This document shows positions 54,439 to 64,000 of a stretch of DNA of 64,000 nucleotides, one piece after another; position 1 is the first letter of the stretch, and each line of letters begins with the position of its first letter. Under the pieces are notes generated by a model that made no database searches, was not told where the DNA came from, and worked only from the letters and a program-made list of their open reading frames with translations. Source of the DNA: Oceanispirochaeta sp. (GTDB lineage: Bacteria > Spirochaetota > Spirochaetia > DSM-2461); assembly GCA_963666275.2 (NCBI GenBank), contig CAXXOA010000003.1, forward strand, positions 128,001 to 192,000. The letters run 5' to 3'. The position numbers were made by a program, and so were the translations under genes.

Positions 54439-54644
54439 TTTCTATACCGTTCCTGCTATTATATTTTTAAAAAAATACACTTATTCTGTATAAGATAGCA
54501 CAGATGAACTATAAGCAACAGTTCATGGATAATTTTTTTTTAGCTTTGGAGAAAAATCTTTTTTATATATTGGACTGTGGGCGGATGTATTGCTGAGGAT
54601 AGAGAATTTCTACTGTGTCAGGTGAATACTGTCATGAAACATTT

Positions 54645-54668
54645 GTTTAAAGCCTCCGGCTACCCGAT
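54645..54668 (+). mobile_element. Remnant 3' end (domain VI) of a third group IIC-attC intron
   Basis: GTTTAAAGCCTCCGGCTACCCGAT matches 61605-61628 at 23/24 nt and is followed by TTCTACAGA, the rest of an attC R'' box. Confidence 0.85.
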
Positions 54669-54683
54669 TTCTACAGATTTTTT

Positions 54684-55283
54684 TTAATCAACATTTAGTA
54701 TTATATATCTTTCCAATTTTTTAATGATTGAAAGTCGTCTGTAATATTTGTAATTAATTATAACAGATAGTGGATTTAAAATAATCGGAATCAATATGGT
54801 AATAAAAACAATTCTGAACATGAAGAAAAAATCATTTGCAATTTTATCATTAAAATGAATAAATAATGTTGGGATAATGATTAAAGCTAGTATAGAAGAA
54901 AATATTCGTTTAAATTTATAATCTATATAATTGTTTTCTAATTCAAATAATGCTTTTGCTTTTTTTATATCATTATATTCAATTTTGTGTTTATTAATTT
55001 CTTGCTCAAAGCATTTATAATAGTCCTTAGAATCTGTTTCCCCATAGTCTTCAATCATTTGCTTTTTTATAGCCGTATCAATTAAAAATGTCATTAATAT
55101 TGATATCGAAAAAAATATTACATAGACCAATCGGTCAATAAATATAAATGAGAAAATAAGTGACAATACCATGATTAATAATGGCAGTATTACTTGAATC
55201 AACATATTTTTAGTCTTCATTCGCTTAATAATATCAATTGTAATTAATTTTCTATATAGTTGTTCAATTTCTTTGTCTATCAT
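54684..55283 (-). CDS. Cassette-borne hypothetical membrane protein
   Basis: AAGGGAG RBS, 4 TM segments; stop lies a few bp from the R'' remnant. Confidence 0.75.
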   Translation of the reverse strand: MIDKEIEQLYRKLITIDIIKRMKTKNMLIQVILPLLIMVLSLIFSFIFIDRLVYVIFFSISILMTFLIDTAIKKQMIEDYGETDSKDYYKCFEQEINKHKIEYNDIKKAKALFELENNYIDYKFKRIFSSILALIIIPTLFIHFNDKIANDFFFMFRIVFITILIPIILNPLSVIINYKYYRRLSIIKKLERYIILNVD

Positions 55284-55352
55284 TTTTTTCTCCCTTTTAT
55301 AGAAAATTCATTTCTTCATCTTTGTTTTGTATTCTAATCGCATTATTTAATC

Positions 55353-55910
55353 TTAGATGAAAAAAATCTGTTGTAAAATAAATCCAGTTGCGATTAGCAA
55401 TATCGCTGGAATAATAATTAAAAATTCTGGAATTAAGGCATAAATAATTATTTTCTTTTTACAATCATATAATACTGAAATCGAATAATACCTTAATAGG
55501 ACTAGATATATCACAGGAATTATATAAAGTACTTTTATGTCGGTAAGATTTATTATATTCCCTATAATTGTATTAACAGAACAAAATGATGCTATCTTCA
55601 GTGCAACATGGAAGTCTCTTTCACAATTAAATCTAGGAGCAAAATAATCAATTACTTTAGCGGCAATATAAATAGTAATAATTCCCATTATATTAAATAT
55701 GGTTGCTTGTAATATACTATTGCTAAGTGAATAACCTTTATAAGGTCCGTAAATATAGATTTTGATAATGCTCAATATGATATTAATTAAGCAAACATAT
55801 ATCAAAAAATCTTTTATAATACTGAAATATGATCCTTCATATTTTTTTAATTTTTGAAACTCGATATATGGGTGAATAATAATTCCCCAAAATGTTTGTA
55901 TGAAAAACAA
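55353..55910 (-). CDS. Cassette-borne Yip1-like membrane protein
   Basis: GGAGG RBS with TTG start; IIIHP..F and IDYFAPRF...DF..ALKIA pattern. Confidence 0.65.
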   Translation of the reverse strand: MFFIQTFWGIIIHPYIEFQKLKKYEGSYFSIIKDFLIYVCLINIILSIIKIYIYGPYKGYSLSNSILQATIFNIMGIITIYIAAKVIDYFAPRFNCERDFHVALKIASFCSVNTIIGNIINLTDIKVLYIIPVIYLVLLRYYSISVLYDCKKKIIIYALIPEFLIIIPAILLIATGFILQQIFFI

Positions 55911-55925
55911 TTATCCCTCCATTCT

Positions 55926-56036
55926 GTAGAACATTCTTTTCATTTGCAGACCGTTAAGCTGGCGTGAAACCTGCCTGCGTAGCAGAAAAGCGGGTTTCAT
56001 GACAGTAGGGCTGACAATTGCAAAAGCATGTTCTAC
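55926..56036 (-). other. attC site, intact (111 bp)
   Basis: CTGTAGAACATTCTTTTCATTTGCAG pairs with CTGACAATTGCAAAAGCATGTTCTACAG, leaving extrahelical C56021 and A56014 on the 3' arm of the + (bottom) strand. Confidence 0.88.
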
Positions 56037-56078
56037 AGCATTATCATCTCCATTCTTCTTAGTTAAAACTAATTATCC

Positions 56079-56107
56079 TTGATAATATTTGTTACATGGG
56101 TTATATT
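56079..56107 (+). promoter_or_regulatory. Promoter for candidate small RNA
   Basis: TTGATA-17 nt-TATATT. Confidence 0.55.
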
Positions 56108-56113
56108 TTAATT

Positions 56114-56179
56114 AGTGATACTCATCTACCCATGGTAGAAGGAGCTGAGGGATCGATTAATATTCGGGTCCCTTTTTTT
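56114..56179 (+). ncRNA. Candidate ~65-nt small RNA convergent with the DUF3800 operon
   Basis: Hairpin CTC-A-TCTACC-CAT-GGTAGA-AG-GAG (56121-56144), then terminator AGGGATCGA-TTAATAT-TCGGGTCCCT with T-run 56173-56179; GC-richer than its surroundings. Confidence 0.6.
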
Positions 56180-56645
56180 ATGCATTATCATATTTCTTCT
56201 GATAATAACTTTCATTACGGCCTTCATTTACATAAAATGCTGTAGTAAGAAAATATTTCTTCGGTATTTCTTTCAATATAATGAGATAGTGTCCTTTCTT
56301 ATACCAGAAATACGATTTATTTATCACCTTACCCCTTCTATCCATATCTAGTTCATTCCAAGTTAGAATCTCTGGATGAGCAGCATTCTCGATGATCGGT
56401 CTGAGCCAAGGTAGCCTTTTTGCTCTTTTAAAATCAATCAATCTTTCTTCTTTACCTCTCGTGACTACATGCCAGAAACCTTCTTCATAATCAGAGTCAA
56501 TTTTTCTGTTATCTACAATAATAGGTAAAGATTTGAAATATAAACGATTTTTGATTAAATCATTGAAAAATACATCATATAAAGAACTAATCATTTCTTC
56601 AAAGGTTGAATCGAGAACAAGTTTTTCAGGCAAAAAATCAAGCAT
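56178..56645 (-). CDS. Cassette-borne putative BECR/RelE-like nuclease (phage P1-related hypothetical type)
   Basis: EEGFWHVVTR, RAKRLPWLRPIIE, YLIILK...FLTTAFY pattern; starts 2 bp after the DUF3800 stop. Confidence 0.6.
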   Translation of the reverse strand: MLDFLPEKLVLDSTFEEMISSLYDVFFNDLIKNRLYFKSLPIIVDNRKIDSDYEEGFWHVVTRGKEERLIDFKRAKRLPWLRPIIENAAHPEILTWNELDMDRRGKVINKSYFWYKKGHYLIILKEIPKKYFLTTAFYVNEGRNESYYQKKYDNA

Positions 56646-56647
56646 GT

Positions 56648-57349
56648 TTATATTACCTTTGGAGAAAAATGAAAAAGGTTAAATTTCTGCTCCCAAGGAG
56701 GAGTTGTATATAAGATATTGTAACCAGATTTAGATTTCAAATACTCTGAAACATGTAATTTTGCGGGGCTTGATGACATCCCTTTGTTAATATATGTGAT
56801 CGCTCCCAATAAGAAATCACATAATTGCAATAAATTTGACTCATGAGATCTTATCTGTTGAATTCTGCAAACTTTTTCTTGATTAAAATCATAAAATTTA
56901 TTACTCAAGACATCATGTAACTTATGAACTTTTTGAAATCCTTTTGTATCCTTGATATCTACATATATTTCAAAGCAATCATCAGATTTAACTTCGATAA
57001 TATTTCTTAATAGTTCATAATACATTTTATAATAGAACGTATCATGATTACCATCATTATACTGTTCATGATCTAGATTTTCTTTATTATGTACGATCAA
57101 AGATCTAAAATGTAAATTCTGTTCAGAAAAAAATAAATCAATAAGTCTATAGTAGAAATCGATGTTTTTTATCGATACTTTTGTCCATTTCAATTCACCA
57201 TTACAGTTATGTTGATGTTTTAATGCTTTAATTTTTAAGGATAAATCTCTTACGTTTTCTCTTGGATATTGAATTGCACCAAGAGTCATTATTGGAATAT
57301 GGTCATTTAGAAGATGACAACTCTCATCACAATAAATATTTATATCCAA
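56648..57349 (-). CDS. DUF3800 family protein
   Basis: IYCDES, ELKWTK, SHESNLLQLCD motifs; GAGGTG RBS with TTG start. Confidence 0.85.
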   Translation of the reverse strand: MDINIYCDESCHLLNDHIPIMTLGAIQYPRENVRDLSLKIKALKHQHNCNGELKWTKVSIKNIDFYYRLIDLFFSEQNLHFRSLIVHNKENLDHEQYNDGNHDTFYYKMYYELLRNIIEVKSDDCFEIYVDIKDTKGFQKVHKLHDVLSNKFYDFNQEKVCRIQQIRSHESNLLQLCDFLLGAITYINKGMSSSPAKLHVSEYLKSKSGYNILYTTPPWEQKFNLFHFSPKVI

Positions 57350-57401
57350 GTAGCACCTCCTCTCTAAATTGCAATTTTACCATTTTCTTCTTTTTTTGTC
57401 T

Positions 57402-57562
57402 GTAGAACGCCCATATATGCTGCTTAGCAGCCTGGCCGAAGGGCAGGTTAGGCGCTTTTATTCCAACTTTATTCTAAAAACCAATTCGTTATTTGAAAAT
57501 AACTAATACTATGTCGAAATTATCTCTGCATGAAATATGAATGCATCATTTGTTTGCTCTAT
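57402..57562 (-). other. attC site, degenerate (161 bp)
   Basis: GTAGAACGCCCATATATGC pairs with GCATCATTTGTTTGCTCTAT with an extrahelical C; the R'' GTT has become GCT; lies beside the next ORF's stop. Confidence 0.6.
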
Positions 57563-57568
57563 AGTGTT

Positions 57569-57982
57569 TTATATTCCAAGATTCTTGTATTTTTCTAGGT
57601 TTAGGGAGTAGTTCCCGTTTTTTACTTCATTTAGGATTTCAAGATATATAGGTTTAAGTTTACTTGTTTTTGATTTTACAATGTCTCTTTTCACAGAGAA
57701 AATCAAATCATCTTCAAAAGTTGGATCTTTTACTTCACCATTTAGCAATATGCTTGTATACCTTCTTTGAAGATAAGATACTGATTCAGCTTGATTTTCA
57801 TTTTCCCAGCAATGAGTTTCTTTCTGATTATTTGAGATTTCAATTGTTCCAAACTCATAGTTATTTATAATTATTTGAATAACTTCAAATGTATTCTCAA
57901 AATACTTAATTACGATTGAGGATTGAACAAAATCTTTTCTTAATAATTTCTCAAATAGTATTTTTTTAACTTGTTTTCCCAT
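57569..57982 (-). CDS. Cassette-borne hypothetical protein
   Basis: Open frame filling the cassette; start taken at MGKQVKK because the track's TTG at 58063 lies inside the attC. Confidence 0.55.
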   Translation of the reverse strand: MGKQVKKILFEKLLRKDFVQSSIVIKYFENTFEVIQIIINNYEFGTIEISNNQKETHCWENENQAESVSYLQRRYTSILLNGEVKDPTFEDDLIFSVKRDIVKSKTSKLKPIYLEILNEVKNGNYSLNLEKYKNLGI

Positions 57983-58126
57983 AATCCAATAAACCAAATT
58001 ATTTAATGACTGTTTAGAACCAATAATATATTTATTTTTTTTATTTGTCTGTAGAACGCCCAAATCTGCTGCAGACTAAACCACCCCGGGTTTCCCGGAG
58101 ACACAATTATATGAGAGGATTGTGTT

Positions 58127-58447
58127 ATGGGAAAAAGAATCAGGTATGCTCAAGAAGTTAAAGAGCGGGCAGTTCGGATGGTCTTTGATCATGAAAAAGA
58201 CTATGAATCACGGTGGGCAGCAATAATTTCAATAGCCTCAAAAACCGGGTGTACTCCGGAGTCTCTGAGAAAATGGGTAAAACAAACCGAGATAGACCGT
58301 GGTATCAAGGACGGTATTTCCAGTGAAGACCAGGCAAGAATAAAGGAACTTGAAAGAGAAGTTCGTGAGCTTCGAGAAGCCAATGAGATATTGCGTAAGG
58401 CATCAGCATATTTCGCCCAGGCGGAGCTCGACCGCCGAAAGAAATAA
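58127..58447 (+). CDS. IS3 transposase OrfA
   Basis: HTH followed by leucine zipper ELEREVRELREANEILRKASAYFAQAELDR. Confidence 0.95.
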   Translation: MGKRIRYAQEVKERAVRMVFDHEKDYESRWAAIISIASKTGCTPESLRKWVKQTEIDRGIKDGISSEDQARIKELEREVRELREANEILRKASAYFAQAELDRRKK

Positions 58448-59352
58448 TGGTCAATTTCATTGATAAGAATAGGGAAGATCATGGAGTCGAGCCTCTCTGT
58501 AAAAATATTCAGATAGCTCCATCAACCTACTACGAAATGAAATCGAGGCAATCAGATCCAGACAAAGAGCCTCCAAGAGTAAAAAGGGATAATCACCTGA
58601 AAGATGAAATCAAACGGGTCTGGTTTGAGAATAGATGTGTATATGGAGCTAAAAAAGTCTGGCAGGCCATGAATAAAGAAGGAATCCCCGTCGCCAGATG
58701 CACTGTAGAGCGTTTAATGCGTGCTATGGGGCTTCGTGGTGTTATTCGTGGTAAGAAAGTCAGGACAACAATTCCGGTGAAAGACAACAGGCCGGATGAT
58801 CTTGTAAATCGGGATTTCACCGCTTCCAGGCCAAACGAGTTGTGGGTGGCTGACTTCACCTACGTTTCCACCTGGAGGGGATTTGTCTATGTAGCTTTCA
58901 TAATCGATGTATTTTCAAGAATGATTGTCGGCTGGCGGGCATCAACGTCAATGAAAACTGATTTCACTCTAGATGCTCTCAATCAGGCATTGTGGGCAAG
59001 GCAGGTAACAGAAAAACTGATTCATCACAGTGATCGTGGGTCTCAATATCTGGCCATTTCCTATACCGAACGATTGATTGAAGCTGGAATTGATCCATCA
59101 GTTGGGAGTAAAGGGGATTCCTACGACAATGCTCTGGCAGAGACAATAAACGGTCTGTATAAGGCTGAAGTCATTCACAAAGATGGCCCCTGGCGTTCGA
59201 TTGAACAGGTAGAACTGGCAACCTTGGACTGGGTGGATTGGTATAATAACAAACGGATCATGGAACCTCTGGGATATATTTCTCCACAAGAGTTTGAAAT
59301 GATGTATTATGAACAGGAAATTAGTCTGGCAGTAACAGCCGGACTCAAGTAA
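58447..59352 (+). CDS. IS3 transposase OrfB (DDE)
   Basis: WVADFTY, HHSDRGSQY, DNALAETING; -1 frame relative to OrfA. Confidence 0.95.
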   Translation: MVNFIDKNREDHGVEPLCKNIQIAPSTYYEMKSRQSDPDKEPPRVKRDNHLKDEIKRVWFENRCVYGAKKVWQAMNKEGIPVARCTVERLMRAMGLRGVIRGKKVRTTIPVKDNRPDDLVNRDFTASRPNELWVADFTYVSTWRGFVYVAFIIDVFSRMIVGWRASTSMKTDFTLDALNQALWARQVTEKLIHHSDRGSQYLAISYTERLIEAGIDPSVGSKGDSYDNALAETINGLYKAEVIHKDGPWRSIEQVELATLDWVDWYNNKRIMEPLGYISPQEFEMMYYEQEISLAVTAGLK

Positions 59353-59705
59353 ATCTGTCTCCGGGATTCTCGGGGTGGTTCAGACCGTTAAGCTGGCGTG
59401 GTTTGTGCGAATGCAGAAACCATGATCAGTAGGACTGACAGTAGCATTTGCTTGGTACGCCTGACATGGCAATAAACTTATGAGGTGAAAGTCCTCTACA
59501 GCTACCCACGTATAGCAAACATGCTATACCAACTGTTAGCCGACGGCAAGGGCAATTCCGTGAGGAATTGTCTGGAGGAAGCCTGAGTGCAAAACCGGGA
59601 GCCCATGTACAAGAATGTGATAGAAGGCCCAGTTCTGGAGGTGAGTCAGCCAATGATGACGATGCCCCGTGGGTGAGGGATAGGGTAAATCACAGGGTTG
59701 TCCGG

Positions 59706-59747
59706 CCCTGGTCGTAAACTTCGTTTACTGCTCGGGTATGCATCCGA
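59706..59747. repeat. 42-bp hairpin mini-element, variant A (intron domain I, copy 1 only)
   Basis: CCCTGGTCGTAAACTTCGTTTACTGCTCGGGTATGCATCCGA, absent at the equivalent TGTCCGG/GGAA site of copy 2. Confidence 0.8.
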
Positions 59748-59771
59748 GGAAAGTTTATTGTCTTATTCGGG

Positions 59772-59872
59772 AACCGAAAGCCGTTTCGGCTGGAGGTTGT
59801 TATTCAAGCGGCATGGCCGCAACCTTATCGAACACAGATCGAAGCAGCTTGCTGCGTAGAACTTTATTCGGG
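59772..59872. repeat. 92-bp multi-hairpin insertion plus duplicated TTATTCGGG (copy 1 only)
   Basis: TTATTCGGG at 59763-59771 and 59864-59872; copy 2 has one copy and no insert. Confidence 0.8.
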
Positions 59873-60203
59873 GAGATCTGTCTGCAAGGCGGTAACGGCG
59901 GTTTGACCGTGAGAATCCGGAGGATACCGGGGTAACAAATCCAGGCCTATCAGGGGATGACACTCTGATAAGGAGCCGTTTATACGGAACACAAAGAAGT
60001 CGTCACAGCGATTCAAACCGGATGATACAGCGTCAGCAGGAGTAATTCTACTGATAAGCAGACAGAAGTCAGCAGAAGGCATAGTAGCCAACGCCCGGAG
60101 TAATGTCCGGTTCATGGTGAAGGTCTGAACATTTCACAAGGAGGAGCCTGATGGTTCTCAAAGGAACAATTTCAGTTTATGCCGGAATCACTTTTGGCGG
60201 ACC

Positions 60204-61526
60204 ATGGAGAAACCAGCCTTGAACGAATCTATGATGGATTTGATTCTGTCGCAAGATAACATGCGTGATGCCTGGAAACGGGTCAAACGCAACGGTGGAA
60301 GTCCGGGGATTGATGATATATCAATCTCTCAATTTCCTGATTACCTTAAAAATCGGTGGCCAAGAATCAAACGAGCTTTGCTCAATGGGTACTATGTACC
60401 TTCTCCGGTGCTGAGGGTGGAAATCCCGAAGAAATCCGGAGGCTGGTCGCAAACAAGTTTGCTGCTCGCCCATGCAACCGGGGGAAAACGGATGCTGGGA
60501 ATCCCGACAGTTCTAGACAGGGTTATCCAGCAGGCTATTTCACAGGTTCTGAATCCCATATTTGATCCGGATTTCTCGGAGCATAGCTATGGATTCAGAC
60601 CGGGAAGATCGGCTCACGGAGCAGTGAAACAGGTAAATCAACATGTCAAATCCGGGTATAGATACGCCGTGGATCTGGACTTGGAAAAGTTCTTTGATAC
60701 AGTTAATCATGATATCCTGATGCATTTTGTGGCTGTAAAAGTCTGGGACAAATCTGTCCTCAGACTCATCGGCCGTTACCTGAGAGCCGGTATTCAGTTG
60801 GACAATGGAAAAGTGATTCCTACAGACATCGGCACACCCCAAGGCGGGCCCTTATCACCTCTGCTTTCCAATATCCTCCTTGATCGGTTGGATATGGAAC
60901 TGGAGAGAAGAAATGTGAGGTTCGCACGGTATGCAGATGACACTATCCTTTTAACGAAGAGATTGTGTGATGCTAGGAAGATCCTACAGGAAGTTTCAAT
61001 ATTTCTGGTAAGGAAATTGAAATTGGTAGTGAATCAGGAGAAAACGAAAGTTGCAAAGATAAGGGAGTGCAGTTTCCTGGGATTCACATTCAAGGGTAAG
61101 AAGATTCGCTGGACAGAGTCGTCCTTTGAGGATTTTCGGTATCATCTGAAATATCTGACAAGGCGTTCCTGGGGTGTTTCCATGGAATACAGAATCGGGA
61201 AACTCAATGAGTATATCCGGGGCTGGATGAACTACTATGGGATCTCCCAATATTACAGCCCTATACAGAATCTTGATGACTGGCTCCGTAGGAGGATTCG
61301 CATGTGCTACTGGAAACAGTGGCGATATCCCAGAACGAAAGTCAGGAAACTGATGGAACTGGGAATTCCGAAAGATTTTGCCATTATCACCGGTGCCAGT
61401 AGTAAATCCTATTGGCATCTCTCCAAGTCTTACGCTACCAATGCAGCTATGTCCAATAAATGGCTGGAAGAGCAGGGATTGGTCAATATCAAATATCTGT
61501 GGTGTAAAGCCCAGGGATATATCTGA
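60204..61526 (+). CDS. ltrA: Group II intron reverse transcriptase/maturase (class C, no endonuclease domain)
   Basis: SPGID, LGIPTVLDRVIQQA, SYGFRPGRS, GTPQGGPLSPLL, RYADD, GWMNYY, YWKQW. Confidence 0.96.
   Translation: MEKPALNESMMDLILSQDNMRDAWKRVKRNGGSPGIDDISISQFPDYLKNRWPRIKRALLNGYYVPSPVLRVEIPKKSGGWSQTSLLLAHATGGKRMLGIPTVLDRVIQQAISQVLNPIFDPDFSEHSYGFRPGRSAHGAVKQVNQHVKSGYRYAVDLDLEKFFDTVNHDILMHFVAVKVWDKSVLRLIGRYLRAGIQLDNGKVIPTDIGTPQGGPLSPLLSNILLDRLDMELERRNVRFARYADDTILLTKRLCDARKILQEVSIFLVRKLKLVVNQEKTKVAKIRECSFLGFTFKGKKIRWTESSFEDFRYHLKYLTRRSWGVSMEYRIGKLNEYIRGWMNYYGISQYYSPIQNLDDWLRRRIRMCYWKQWRYPRTKVRKLMELGIPKDFAIITGASSKSYWHLSKSYATNAAMSNKWLEEQGLVNIKYLWCKAQGYI
60440..60481. repeat. 42-bp hairpin mini-element, variant B (in frame within the RT gene)
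   Basis: AGGCTGGTCGCAAACAAGTTTGCTGCTCGCCCATGCAACCGG; removing it restores EIPKKSGGKRMLGIP. Confidence 0.8.
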
Positions 61527-61660
61527 TCAAATCAGGATTTCGTTTGCTCCATGGAGTGAACCGCCCCGTGCGGACCCGCATGCGGGGTGGTGTGGGGGCT
61601 GGAGGTTAAAAGCCTCCGGCTACCCGATTTATCTAGCCCTCATATTTTCTGTTCAGTAAT

Positions 61661-61981
61661 TTAAGATGTGAGTCTATAATCCAGAATATGTGGTTCTCTT
61701 TCTAACAACTCTAATAATATTTTTGTTGAACCTGTGGGTGTTCGTTTTCCCTGTTCCCATTGCCTAACCGATGATGCACTTACATTGAGTAATTTCGCAA
61801 ATACTGCCTGACTAAGATGTATTGATTCTCGTATTTTCTTTATATCTTCTGCTGAAACATTTACTTCAGGTATGTTAATTCCCAGTGATTTTAATTCCTT
61901 GTCAGTGAAGGATGTGGGAAGACCTGCATCGATTAGATCTTGTACAGTTTCGGCAATAGAATCTTTTATTGAATCTCTCAT
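61661..61981 (-). CDS. HTH (XRE) antitoxin, HigA-like
   Basis: IRESIHLSQAVFAKLLNVSASSVRQWEQGKRTP. Confidence 0.9.
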   Translation of the reverse strand: MRDSIKDSIAETVQDLIDAGLPTSFTDKELKSLGINIPEVNVSAEDIKKIRESIHLSQAVFAKLLNVSASSVRQWEQGKRTPTGSTKILLELLEREPHILDYRLTS

Positions 61982-61982
61982 A

Positions 61983-62351
61983 CTATTCCCCTATTATCTG
62001 CAAAGCATTATTTTTTATGGCAGTATCTAGTTGCTTATTGTTCAAATTTAATAAATCTTTGCCAATTTTCTTGAAATACTCCAATTCTTTACTGGAGATA
62101 TTATCCATTTCATTCTTCGAAAAACCATATATAAATACAGCTCTGTCATTTTCTTTAAAGACCAGAATTGTCCTGAAACCTCCACTTTTACCGGAACCTT
62201 TCCTGGCGATTCTGACTTTGAATATATTGGATCCGAGTTTGACCGATGATAAATCTGATTCAAGATTACCGATAGCATCCTGAAGATTCTTATCAGCAAT
62301 ATCATTCTTTTTCGCCCATTTGGTGAACCATTTAGTTTTCAGTTTCTTCAC
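61983..62351 (-). CDS. RelE/HigB-family toxin
   Basis: TKWFTKWAKK, KVRIARKGSGKSGGFR, FIYGFSKNE; toxin-first gene order. Confidence 0.9.
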   Translation of the reverse strand: MKKLKTKWFTKWAKKNDIADKNLQDAIGNLESDLSSVKLGSNIFKVRIARKGSGKSGGFRTILVFKENDRAVFIYGFSKNEMDNISSKELEYFKKIGKDLLNLNNKQLDTAIKNNALQIIGE

Positions 62352-62357
62352 AATTCA

Positions 62358-62386
62358 AATATAACACATTGTGGTATAGCAGTCAT
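62358..62386 (-). promoter_or_regulatory. TA promoter with overlapping operator palindrome
   Basis: ATGACT-17 nt-TATATT on the minus strand, 6 nt before the GTG start; palindrome TATAACACA-T-TGTGGTATA at 62360-62378. Confidence 0.65.
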
Positions 62387-62679
62387 GATCTATTTTAGTT
62401 TACTTATATGATTATTTATGTGATCCAATTCAGAAAGTAGTTTTTCATTGCTTTGGTATTATTCTGATTGTACAAACTCGGAGTGTTTTATTACTATCTC
62501 TTGCACCTGCGGTTTTCTATTTAAATGGATTGATCCAGGATAATGATGTTCATAGCATTCATTCCAATTCTCATGGTTATATCTATATATTTCTTCCATC
62601 TTCCGAAGGAAGATTTAAATGATTATAAATTTGAAGAGAGAATCAGTTTAGAAAAATCAATTATCTGATAGCCAATGCT

Positions 62680-62779
62680 AGATAACGCCCGCATCAGCTG
62701 CAATTTTGTCCCGTAGGGTTGGCGACCTTATTGAGTATTCAAAAAGGGTGACAAAAAAATTGTCAGTTGCATGCGCTTG
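62680..62779 (-). other. attC site interrupted by intron copy 2
   Basis: AGATAACGCCCGCATCAGCTGCAATTTTGTC pairs with GACAAAAAAATTGTCAGTTGCATGCGCTTG, with extrahelical C and T on the 3' arm; GCTAGATAAC is the complement of G/TTATCTAGC at 61629. Confidence 0.88.
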
Positions 62780-63385
62780 GTACGCCCGACATGGCAATAA
62801 ACTTATGAGGTGAAAGTCCTCTACAGCTACCCACGTATAGTAAACATGCTATACCAACTGTTAGCCGACGGCAAGGGCAATTCCGTGAGGAATTGTCTGG
62901 AGGAAGCCTGAGTGCAAAACCGGGAGCCCATGCACAAGAATGTGATAGAAGGCCCAGTTCCGGAGGCGAGTCAGCCAATGATGACGATGCCCCGTGGGTG
63001 AGGGATAGGGTAAATCACAGGGTTGTCCGGGGAATGTTTCTTGTCTTATTCGGGGAGATCTGTCTGCAAGGCGGTAACGTCGGTTTGACCGTGAGAATCC
63101 GGAGGATACCGGAGCAACAAGTCCAGGCCTATCAGGGGGTGACACTCTGATAAGGAGCCGTTTATACGGAACACAAAGAAGTCGTCACAGCGCTTCAAAC
63201 CGGATGATACAGCGTCAGCAGGAGTAATTCTACTGATAAGCGGACAGAAGTCAGCAGAAGGCATAGTAGCTAACGCCCGGAGTAATGTCCGGTTCATGGT
63301 GAAGGCCTGAACATTTCACAAGGAGGAGCCTTATGGTTCTCAAAGGAACAATTTCAGTTTATGCCGGAATCACTTTTGGCGGACC

Positions 63386-64000
63386 ATGGAGAAACCAGCC
63401 TTGAACGAATCTATGATGGATTTGATTTTATCCTCTGAGAATATGCACAAAGCCTGGAAACAGGTCAAACGCAATGGAGGTAGCCCTGGAATCGACGGTA
63501 TCACTGTCGAGAAGTTTCCAGGATATCTGAAAACCAGATGGCCTAGAATCAAACGAGCTTTGCTCAACGGGTACTATGTACCTTCTCCGGTGCTGAGGGT
63601 AGAAATCCCGAAGAAATCCGGAGGCTGGTCGCAAACAAGTTTGCTGCTCGCCCATGCAACCGGGGGAAAACGGATGCTGGGAATCCCGACAGTTCTAGAC
63701 AGGGTTATCCAGCAGGCTATTTCACAGGTTCTGAATCCCATATTTGATCCGGATTTCTCGGAGCATAGCTATGGATTCAGACCGGGAAGATCGGCTCACG
63801 GAGCAGTGAAACAGGTAAATCAACATGTCAAATCCGGGTATAGATACGCCGTGGATCTGGACTTGGAAAAGTTCTTTGATACAGTTAATCATGATATCCT
63901 GATGCATTTTGTGGCTGTAAAAGTCCGGGACAAATCTGTCCTCAGACTCATCGGCCGTTACCTGAGAGCCGGTATTCAGTTGGACAATGGAAAAGTGATT
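63386..64000 (+). CDS. ltrA: Group II intron RT/maturase, copy 2 (partial)
   Basis: MEKPALNESMMDLILSSENMHKAWKQVKRNGGSPGID..., open to the window end. Confidence 0.93.
   Translation, partial: MEKPALNESMMDLILSSENMHKAWKQVKRNGGSPGIDGITVEKFPGYLKTRWPRIKRALLNGYYVPSPVLRVEIPKKSGGWSQTSLLLAHATGGKRMLGIPTVLDRVIQQAISQVLNPIFDPDFSEHSYGFRPGRSAHGAVKQVNQHVKSGYRYAVDLDLEKFFDTVNHDILMHFVAVKVRDKSVLRLIGRYLRAGIQLDNGKVI
63622..63663. repeat. 42-bp hairpin mini-element, variant B (copy 2 RT gene)
   Basis: Identical to 60440-60481. Confidence 0.8.

Follow-up and report, generated by a model that had tools for sequence, protein, structure and literature searches.

An integrase-less integron cassette array with its own attI-like head in an Oceanispirochaeta genome

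The cassette array

The array of integron gene cassettes described here lies towards the right-hand end of a 64,000-nucleotide stretch of DNA from Oceanispirochaeta sp. (hereafter the window), which spans positions 128001-192000 of contig C3 in a 5.27-Mb genome of three contigs (C1, C2 and C3); coordinates given without a contig name are those of the window. At 55-58 kb, the GC content drops from about 48% to 27-31%, and short open reading frames (ORFs) run on the minus strand. The whole array (C3:182645-205222) is 22.6 kb long and comprises six cassettes and five attC sites, four of them in the window, which holds its distal part, and the fifth at C3:203937. With two or more attC sites and no integron integrase gene (intI) nearby, it is a genuine gene-cassette array of the CALIN type (a cluster of attC sites that has no integron integrase). 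An attI-like head of its own stands at C3:205220, 13.2 kb to the right of the window. In its workings it resembles the array of an ordinary integron, but it is not a complete integron, since it lacks an adjacent intI, the gene being located on C1 beside a different array.

An initial annotation of the window had proposed an integron-type array, which is borne out by the folding of the attC sites, the complementary ends of the cassettes and the C found as extrahelical base. The nine-letter start of the sites occurs four times in the window (at 55924, 57400 and 58049 on the plus strand and at 56030 on the minus strand) against 0.25 expected, and none of 100 shuffles reaches four copies. For the intact 111-nt site (55926..56036, minus strand), the folding energy is -28.8 kcal/mol for the plus strand (z -7.12, 0/200 shuffles) and -21.5 for the minus strand; the plus strand is therefore the bottom strand. 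The bottom strand is likewise favoured at 62680-62779 (-21.0 kcal/mol, z -4.21, against -15.8 for the opposite strand) and in a further comparison (-17.4 versus -12.0). The bottom-strand hairpin is closed by the AAC of R′ and the GTT of R″, intact at 55926 and with the triplet split by an intron at 58051 and 62680. As the annotation had stated, all four sites (55926, 57402, 58051 and 62680) have C as their first extrahelical base; the second, six bases inward, is A or T, i.e., A at 55926 and T at 62680. The extrahelical bases lie on the arm that faces the AAC, and the central spacer is unpaired. Covariation supports the fold, with two-sided changes at 25 of 31 pairs, the alignment having been fitted to the model.

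The distal edge of the array is marked by 28 nt of an insertion sequence (IS) end (54615..54642), which matches the end of a 1.2-kb element that is present in two copies on C1 and encodes a 359-aa transposase-like frame. Next comes a 24-nt remnant of a group II intron 3′ end (54645..54668, plus strand), behind which stands the R″ of the last cassette, seen initially as a remnant site at 54669. This cassette (54669..55932, minus strand; ends matching at 9 of 10 positions) holds two ORFs of 199 aa and 185 aa, the latter with a Yip1 domain (PF04893). The attC at 55926 scores 91.8 bits with model R1, of whose training set it is itself a member, and has no blastn match in plasmids. The following cassette (56031..57408, minus strand; ends matching at 8 of 10) carries a candidate two-gene anti-phage system, PDC-M04A (DUF3800; PADLOC E 1e-86) and PDC-M04B (E 8e-38). 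Its neighbouring attC (57402..57562, minus strand) is long (161 nt) and decayed, with an altered R″ triplet and a poor fold (z -1.9 over 57404-57562); it is missed by both the hidden Markov model (HMM) and the covariance model and is 76-82% similar to long sites of other arrays over 136-144 nt. A short cassette (57557..58057, minus strand) has one ORF, predicted only, and a decayed R″ in which 6 of the first 8 bases match by eye.

The next attC, of 99 nt, is split. Its first piece (58051..58076, minus strand) is followed by an IS3-family element (58077..59382, plus strand) with an apical loop-internal loop (ALIL) frameshift pseudoknot and a 3-bp target duplication, then by its second piece (59386..59454, minus strand; 41.2 bits with model R1), which ends at the G of R″. 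A group IIC-attC intron (59455..61628, plus strand) with a reverse transcriptase (RT)/maturase ORF (60204-61526) lies between this G and the TT of R″ on the bottom strand. When both inserts are removed in silico, the site forms a hairpin with a C extrahelical base. A toxin-antitoxin cassette with a RelE-family toxin and a helix-turn-helix antitoxin (61629..62686, minus strand; PF06296 and PF01381; ends matching at 9 of 10) leads to the attC at 62680..62779 (minus strand), whose R″ is parted off by a second group IIC-attC intron. This intron occupies 62780..64000 (plus strand), extends past the window to C3:195140 and has an IS66 element in the end of its ORF. Thus, the four palindromic sites listed initially are all of the attC type, but one is long and poorly folding, one is split by an IS3 element and an intron, and one is followed by an intron; these inserts, and the IS and intron ends before 54669, were absent from that description. 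The complementary ends of the three well-matched cassettes were likewise real, but they are normal to any cassette; they fit the circular intermediates of which they had been called the signature and do not show them.

To the right of the window lie an 8.8-kb cassette, a 1.1-kb cassette and the head. The 8.8-kb cassette (C3:195141-203943; ends matching at 9 of 10) is interrupted by an IS66-like element and encodes TIR, Nmad2, SLOG and 5-hydroxymethyldeoxyuridine (5-hmdU) kinase domains. These comprise the helical domain of the kinase, a weak thymidylate synthase match, two ThsB-like TIR proteins, Nmad2 and a TIR-SLOG protein, a predicted content that makes a modified-base-linked anti-phage system likely. 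The cassettes at C3:204105-205222, C3:278030-279387 and C2:1169974-1173757 are related, with a near-identical 174-nt attC and reversed ORFs.

Genome-wide, 27 attC sites in five arrays were found, i.e., 26 listed sites and the split one at 58051. A fixed-register anatomical scan, which gave 101 matches, 17 of them in the four regions then known and one of these spurious, served only to seed the models, and the covariance model was built from 13 short sites. A substitute standard attC model from mobile integrons recovered only about 13 sites and was abandoned.

The integrase and the attI-like heads

An intI gene had been expected beyond position 64000; a rightward search found none in C3:191000-240000 or in the remainder of C3, and no intI remnant lies beside the head of the array. 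The only TIGR02249 match above cut-off in the genome (about 389-390 bits against a cut-off of 265) is a 407-aa protein encoded at C1:1063487-1064710 by a gene that heads its own array on C1; the match itself covers C1:1063760-1064701. This integrase (C1 IntI) can be aligned to VchIntIA (2A3V) across residues 94-403 (E 3.5e-82), possesses the tyrosine recombinase residues and the integron-specific domain, and retains the catalytic and extrahelical-pocket positions. The base-contact residues K156, R168, K219, Y220 and W229 of IntI1 (PMC3053210) align with K, R, K, Y and W, and no compensating change is seen in the extrahelical pocket. Its best relatives include many Spirochaetota records. A 90-aa N-terminal extension (L001:1228-1500) is kept in relatives and missing from IntI1. 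The array of this complete integron ends beside tRNA-Thr and tRNA-Tyr genes (C1:1032055-1032219).

The genome contains five attI-like copies, one per array and each at the proximal end. All four integrase-less arrays (that of the window and those at C1:1288k, C2:1180k and C3:280k) carry such a copy, correctly oriented and adjoining the first cassette. The head at C3:205220 is homologous to the intI-adjacent site; the AAC triplet is where the homology begins, and on the cassette side the bases are variable. The head of one of the other three integrase-less arrays shows 89% identity over 143 nt, and the 30 bases beside the triplet are far better conserved than the DNA beyond. A matrix built from the five heads scores 42-43 at these positions, which are self-matches by construction, and at most 17.5 elsewhere in the 5.27 Mb, with no further copy. 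The far end of the first cassette agrees with the head junction at 8 of 10 positions in the window array and, compared by eye, at 9, 9, 8 and 6 of 10 in the other four. In the window array's head, as in an attI site, the crossover triplet abuts the first cassette and the far end of that cassette is complementary. This head is split by an IS66 element with an 8-bp duplication, 53 bases from the crossover. Short-read contigs, probably from the source sample and not independent, bridge the head and the first cassette; a second sample under the same species label yielded nothing on the head region. Joints in the short reads were considered as excision products and rejected, as they correspond to the paralogous heads. 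Behind two of the solo heads lies a GC-rich element of roughly 100 nt (C3:207750-207850 and C2:1180150-1180250), of which one further copy is present at C3:217770-217876.

Solo heads are also found in relatives, where 8 of the 14 genomes examined hold 11 candidates. Eight of these have an attC on the expected side and strand; the other three have none within the 1.5 kb examined, two of them being near contig ends. In two relatives (G002 and G006; L157 and L160), intI contains in-frame stops, despite large arrays and solo heads. The gene of the left flank of the window array was not found in 10 of 10 genus members with the query used, and no empty allele was seen.

Introns and other inserts in attC sites

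Introns occupy 11 of the 27 attC sites of the genome, and at two more the same G of R″ is taken by an IS110-family element (C1:1294212-1295330 and C2:1166478). Ten intron copies are inserted at this G and one divergent copy three bases further. The intron at 59455..61628 is identified by Rfam (RF02001 and RF01998) and by TIGR04416 above cut-off as a class C ribozyme with an RT/maturase. The introns are oriented opposite to the cassettes and enter the R″ of the attC bottom strand. The intron-encoded protein at 60204-61526 is 51% identical to those within class 1 integrons, and the three top plasmid matches that were opened all lie in class 1 integron arrays. Among 13 sampled genomes of relatives, intron occupancy is seen only in G003, at 5 of 14 anchored sites.

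Because the intron parts the hairpin from R″, occupied sites would be unable to recombine. Two of the five attC sites of the window array are held by introns at the G of R″, one of them also by the IS3 element, and one further site is decayed; together with the split head, this suggests that the array is now largely frozen, the introns blocking excision.

Several further observations concern the introns. In some copies, the intron RT gene contains, in frame, a stretch of about 39 nt (60436-60477) from a small repeat that is dispersed, which adds 13 residues; this repeat is also found in domain I of other introns, with more than 20 related copies elsewhere in the genome. At C2:1173757-1173876, C1:1034446-1034514 and C1:1032446-1032512, R″ sites are preceded by 3′ remnants of the intron, roughly 70 nt long and variant in sequence, and one remnant is fused to half an attC. 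The distal end is an intron 3′ remnant in three of the five arrays.

Core sequence and extrahelical base across relatives

The cores of the window had been described as non-canonical, GTTCTAC in place of GTTRRRY. The sites do mostly break GTTRRRY, which fits none of the four in the window, 3 of 27 genome-wide (by eye) and 11 of 116 in relatives. GTTCTAC itself is not characteristic, being found at 3 of the 27 sites of the genome, all in the window (by eye), and at 12 of the 116. All 27 sites have C as the first extrahelical base (by eye; 25 in the fixed register and two after correction of their end coordinates). The stretch shared by two sites, taken initially for a resident repeat family, exists but is the inner stem of the attC family.

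The covariance model matches 10 of 10 members of the genus, 16 of 18 of the family and 25 of 80 of the class. The set of relatives was reduced from 141 matches in 21 loci, by removal of 17 unanchored matches and 8 duplicates, to 116 distinct sites in the 13 sampled genomes. C is the extrahelical base in 114 of these and T stands at core position 5 in 86, and 29 sites are longer than 141 nt. Across the class, 39 matches less 3 unanchored and 2 antisense ones leave 34 sites. Over 86 cassettes of relatives, the agreement between both ends of one cassette comes to 5.56 of 6 bases, compared with 3.52 across a site to the neighbour and 3.17 ± 0.11 in shuffled pairs; each cassette thus retains its own complementary core pair. 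Of the 10 relatives with a readable junction, two (G001 and G017) have a GTTCTAC core directly at the attI beside intI, which suggests that cassettes with this core were inserted there. Among 80 related-integrase loci, the attC family was found in one Spirochaetales genome; the HMM detected no attC at the other 79, many of which have intI at a contig end. In one relative (G013:C1:3602958-3609566; L132), near-identical attC sites, about a dozen in number, recur every 399 bases and suggest tandem amplification of one small cassette.

Both the GTTCTAC core and the C extrahelical base lie within known attC variation, and neither is new. The AAC triplet is the only part conserved in all attC sites, and the GTTRRRY consensus is a tendency rather than a requirement (Nivina et al., PMC5027507). 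Supplement 12 of Cury et al. (2016; PMC4889954) includes two Spirochaeta caldaria sites with GTTCTAC as R′ and an extrahelical G, to which the attc_4 model gives E 0.48 and 0.59; related sites of this species are detected at E 0.00014-0.59. The suspicion that standard models may miss such sites is therefore reasonable as regards these weak scores, but the core had already been reported. An extrahelical C, claimed as a novelty, is known and was assayed in attC-dfrA1 (PMC3053210). What remains of the claimed novelty is the near-fixation of C in one lineage, without a visible change to the integrase pocket.

Origin of the array

Altogether, these findings are best explained if the window holds the distal part of an integrase-less CALIN with its own attI-like head, built in trans by C1 IntI, a reading to which we assign a probability of roughly 0.7. 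As the single copy in the genome, C1 IntI would most likely have assembled the array through the usual chemistry. A hairpin would form from the bottom strand of the cassette attC, and the integrase would read its shape and the two extrahelical bases before exchanging one strand at the AAC triplet with attI. Because the bases beside the triplet are free in such an exchange, each cassette would keep its own complementary core pair, GTTCTAC included. The heads would then be working attI sites on which the integrase acts in trans.

Several points weigh against this reading. Solo heads were not found, with the queries used, in G003, G005, G008, G012, G016 and G018, and two arrays of G002 yield no head. 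At the thresholds used, the five arrays share no cassette coding regions beyond short stretches, the matches being mostly attC and giving no sign of traffic between arrays. No consensus cassette promoter (Pc) is seen on the cassette strand of the C1 attI, in a scan of that site at chance level. The head of the window array is itself interrupted by IS66, and it is by position and homology that the heads are assigned as attI sites.

The rival that survives best, although unlikely, holds that the satellite arrays derive from complete integrons from which intI was lost and are now dead, with heads that are fossils no longer taking cassettes. In reviews, CALINs are traced to off-target insertion, to intI loss or to rearrangement (PMC4889954 and PMC8618304), so intI loss is a published route. 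Moreover, the homology of two heads ends within about 12 bases of the intI start, and the window array is decayed. Four of 14 solo heads also match the attI of another genome better, as expected of incoming integrons, and one more had no site of its own for comparison. However, the closest intI-adjacent attI comes from the same genome for the other 10, at 87-93% over 142 nt for some. At the 14 solo heads tested, of 15 in all, no intI remnant was detected in the surrounding 1.5-3 kb (best E 0.096; control 6e-212), and by eye the largest flanking frames seem to differ between sites. The far better conservation of the 30 bases next to the triplet also argues against fossils.

The initial annotation had favoured a divergent integron; on such a view, the specificity of the integrase would be altered for the GTTCTAC core and the C extrahelical base. 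C is indeed nearly fixed in the sampled genomes, against about 8% in the published Spirochaetes model, and GTTRRRY is rare there. This explanation is nevertheless improbable. The same attC family has C at 21, G at 9 and A at 4 of the 34 class-wide sites, recovered with a covariance model trained on C sites, and G in S. caldaria. The GTTCTAC core is a minority, the five base-contact residues are those of IntI1, and C is tolerated or favoured by IntI1, IntI2*, IntI3 and SonIntIA (PMC3053210). Foundation of the array by off-target insertion at a secondary (attG-like) site, with the head sequence arising later or by chance, is very improbable: although it too is a published route to CALINs and some arrays of relatives, such as the two of G002, have no detectable head, it is largely refuted for this genome by the correctly placed heads of all four integrase-less arrays.

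A broader reading of the family, which is a real possibility short of even odds, is that of a distributed integron: one integrase would serve several dispersed working attI platforms, arising repeatedly by copying of attI without intI, with arrays built in trans, and the dfrA1 and dfrA14 cassettes would come from the same attC family. If so, many arrays filed as integrase-less remains would be live capture sites. Cury et al. (2016) left the origin and activity of CALINs open, their attI search being confined to classes 1-3 (PMC4889954); with an attI whose conservation makes it visible at each array head, as here, this question becomes testable. In this respect, it is the spare attI that matters, the GTTCTAC core and the C extrahelical base mattering little.

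Comparison with known systems

The introns resemble the S.ma.I2-type group IIC-attC introns, as described in PMC3001079 and PMC7923331, in being of class C, opposite to the cassettes and in the R″ of the bottom strand, with the same 5′ and 3′ ends. They differ in inserting after TTG, one base before the TTGT of known members (majority consensus TTGT/T in PMC7923331). The loop aligned with the probable exon-binding site 1 (EBS1) is shifted by one base, matching this shift, and the intron may represent a natural one-base retargeting of an attC-homing ribozyme.

As regards the attC sites, the Spirochaetes-type model of Ghaly et al. (2021; PMC8352920) shares a length of about 100 nt, the same inner stem motif and extrahelical bases at top-strand positions 16 and 23. 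Compared by eye, that model has G (52%), A (32%) or C (about 8%) as the first extrahelical base of the bottom strand, whereas C is found here, and a purine at core position 5, where the present sites mostly have T. A described counterpart in this respect is attC-dfrA1 (Larouche and Roy 2011; PMC3053210), with C as the R-proximal extrahelical base and the same inner motif, but with a wild-type spacing of 7-8 bases against 6 here. In the account of PMC3053210, A-N6-C and T-N6-C sites are excised by four integrases, C is excised at least as well as G, and C is called rare, whereas it is nearly fixed in the present lineage. The model of the genome's own sites recovers attC-dfrA1 at 50 bits (E 7e-11) and attC-dfrA14 at 37 bits, both of which share the inner motif (L149:7126-7220 and L147:5238-5317), and finds no match among the short G-type sites in nine plasmid loci. 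The lineage-wide C and the match to attC-dfrA1 thus provide a lead on the origin of C-type resistance cassettes.

The array as a whole is most like the CALINs of Cury et al. (2016; PMC4889954), with several attC sites, no intI nearby and intI elsewhere in the genome. The table of that study includes spirochaete CALINs, in S. caldaria, with the same inner TGGCG/TGACA stem and the GTTCTAC core. Literature searches, outside which lay subscription papers, bioRxiv supplements and files 2 and 13-16 of Cury et al., returned no description of a spare attI at CALINs. As they are set out in PMC4889954, CALINs were defined without a search for attI, whereas the array described here carries a copy of the genome's own attI at its head.

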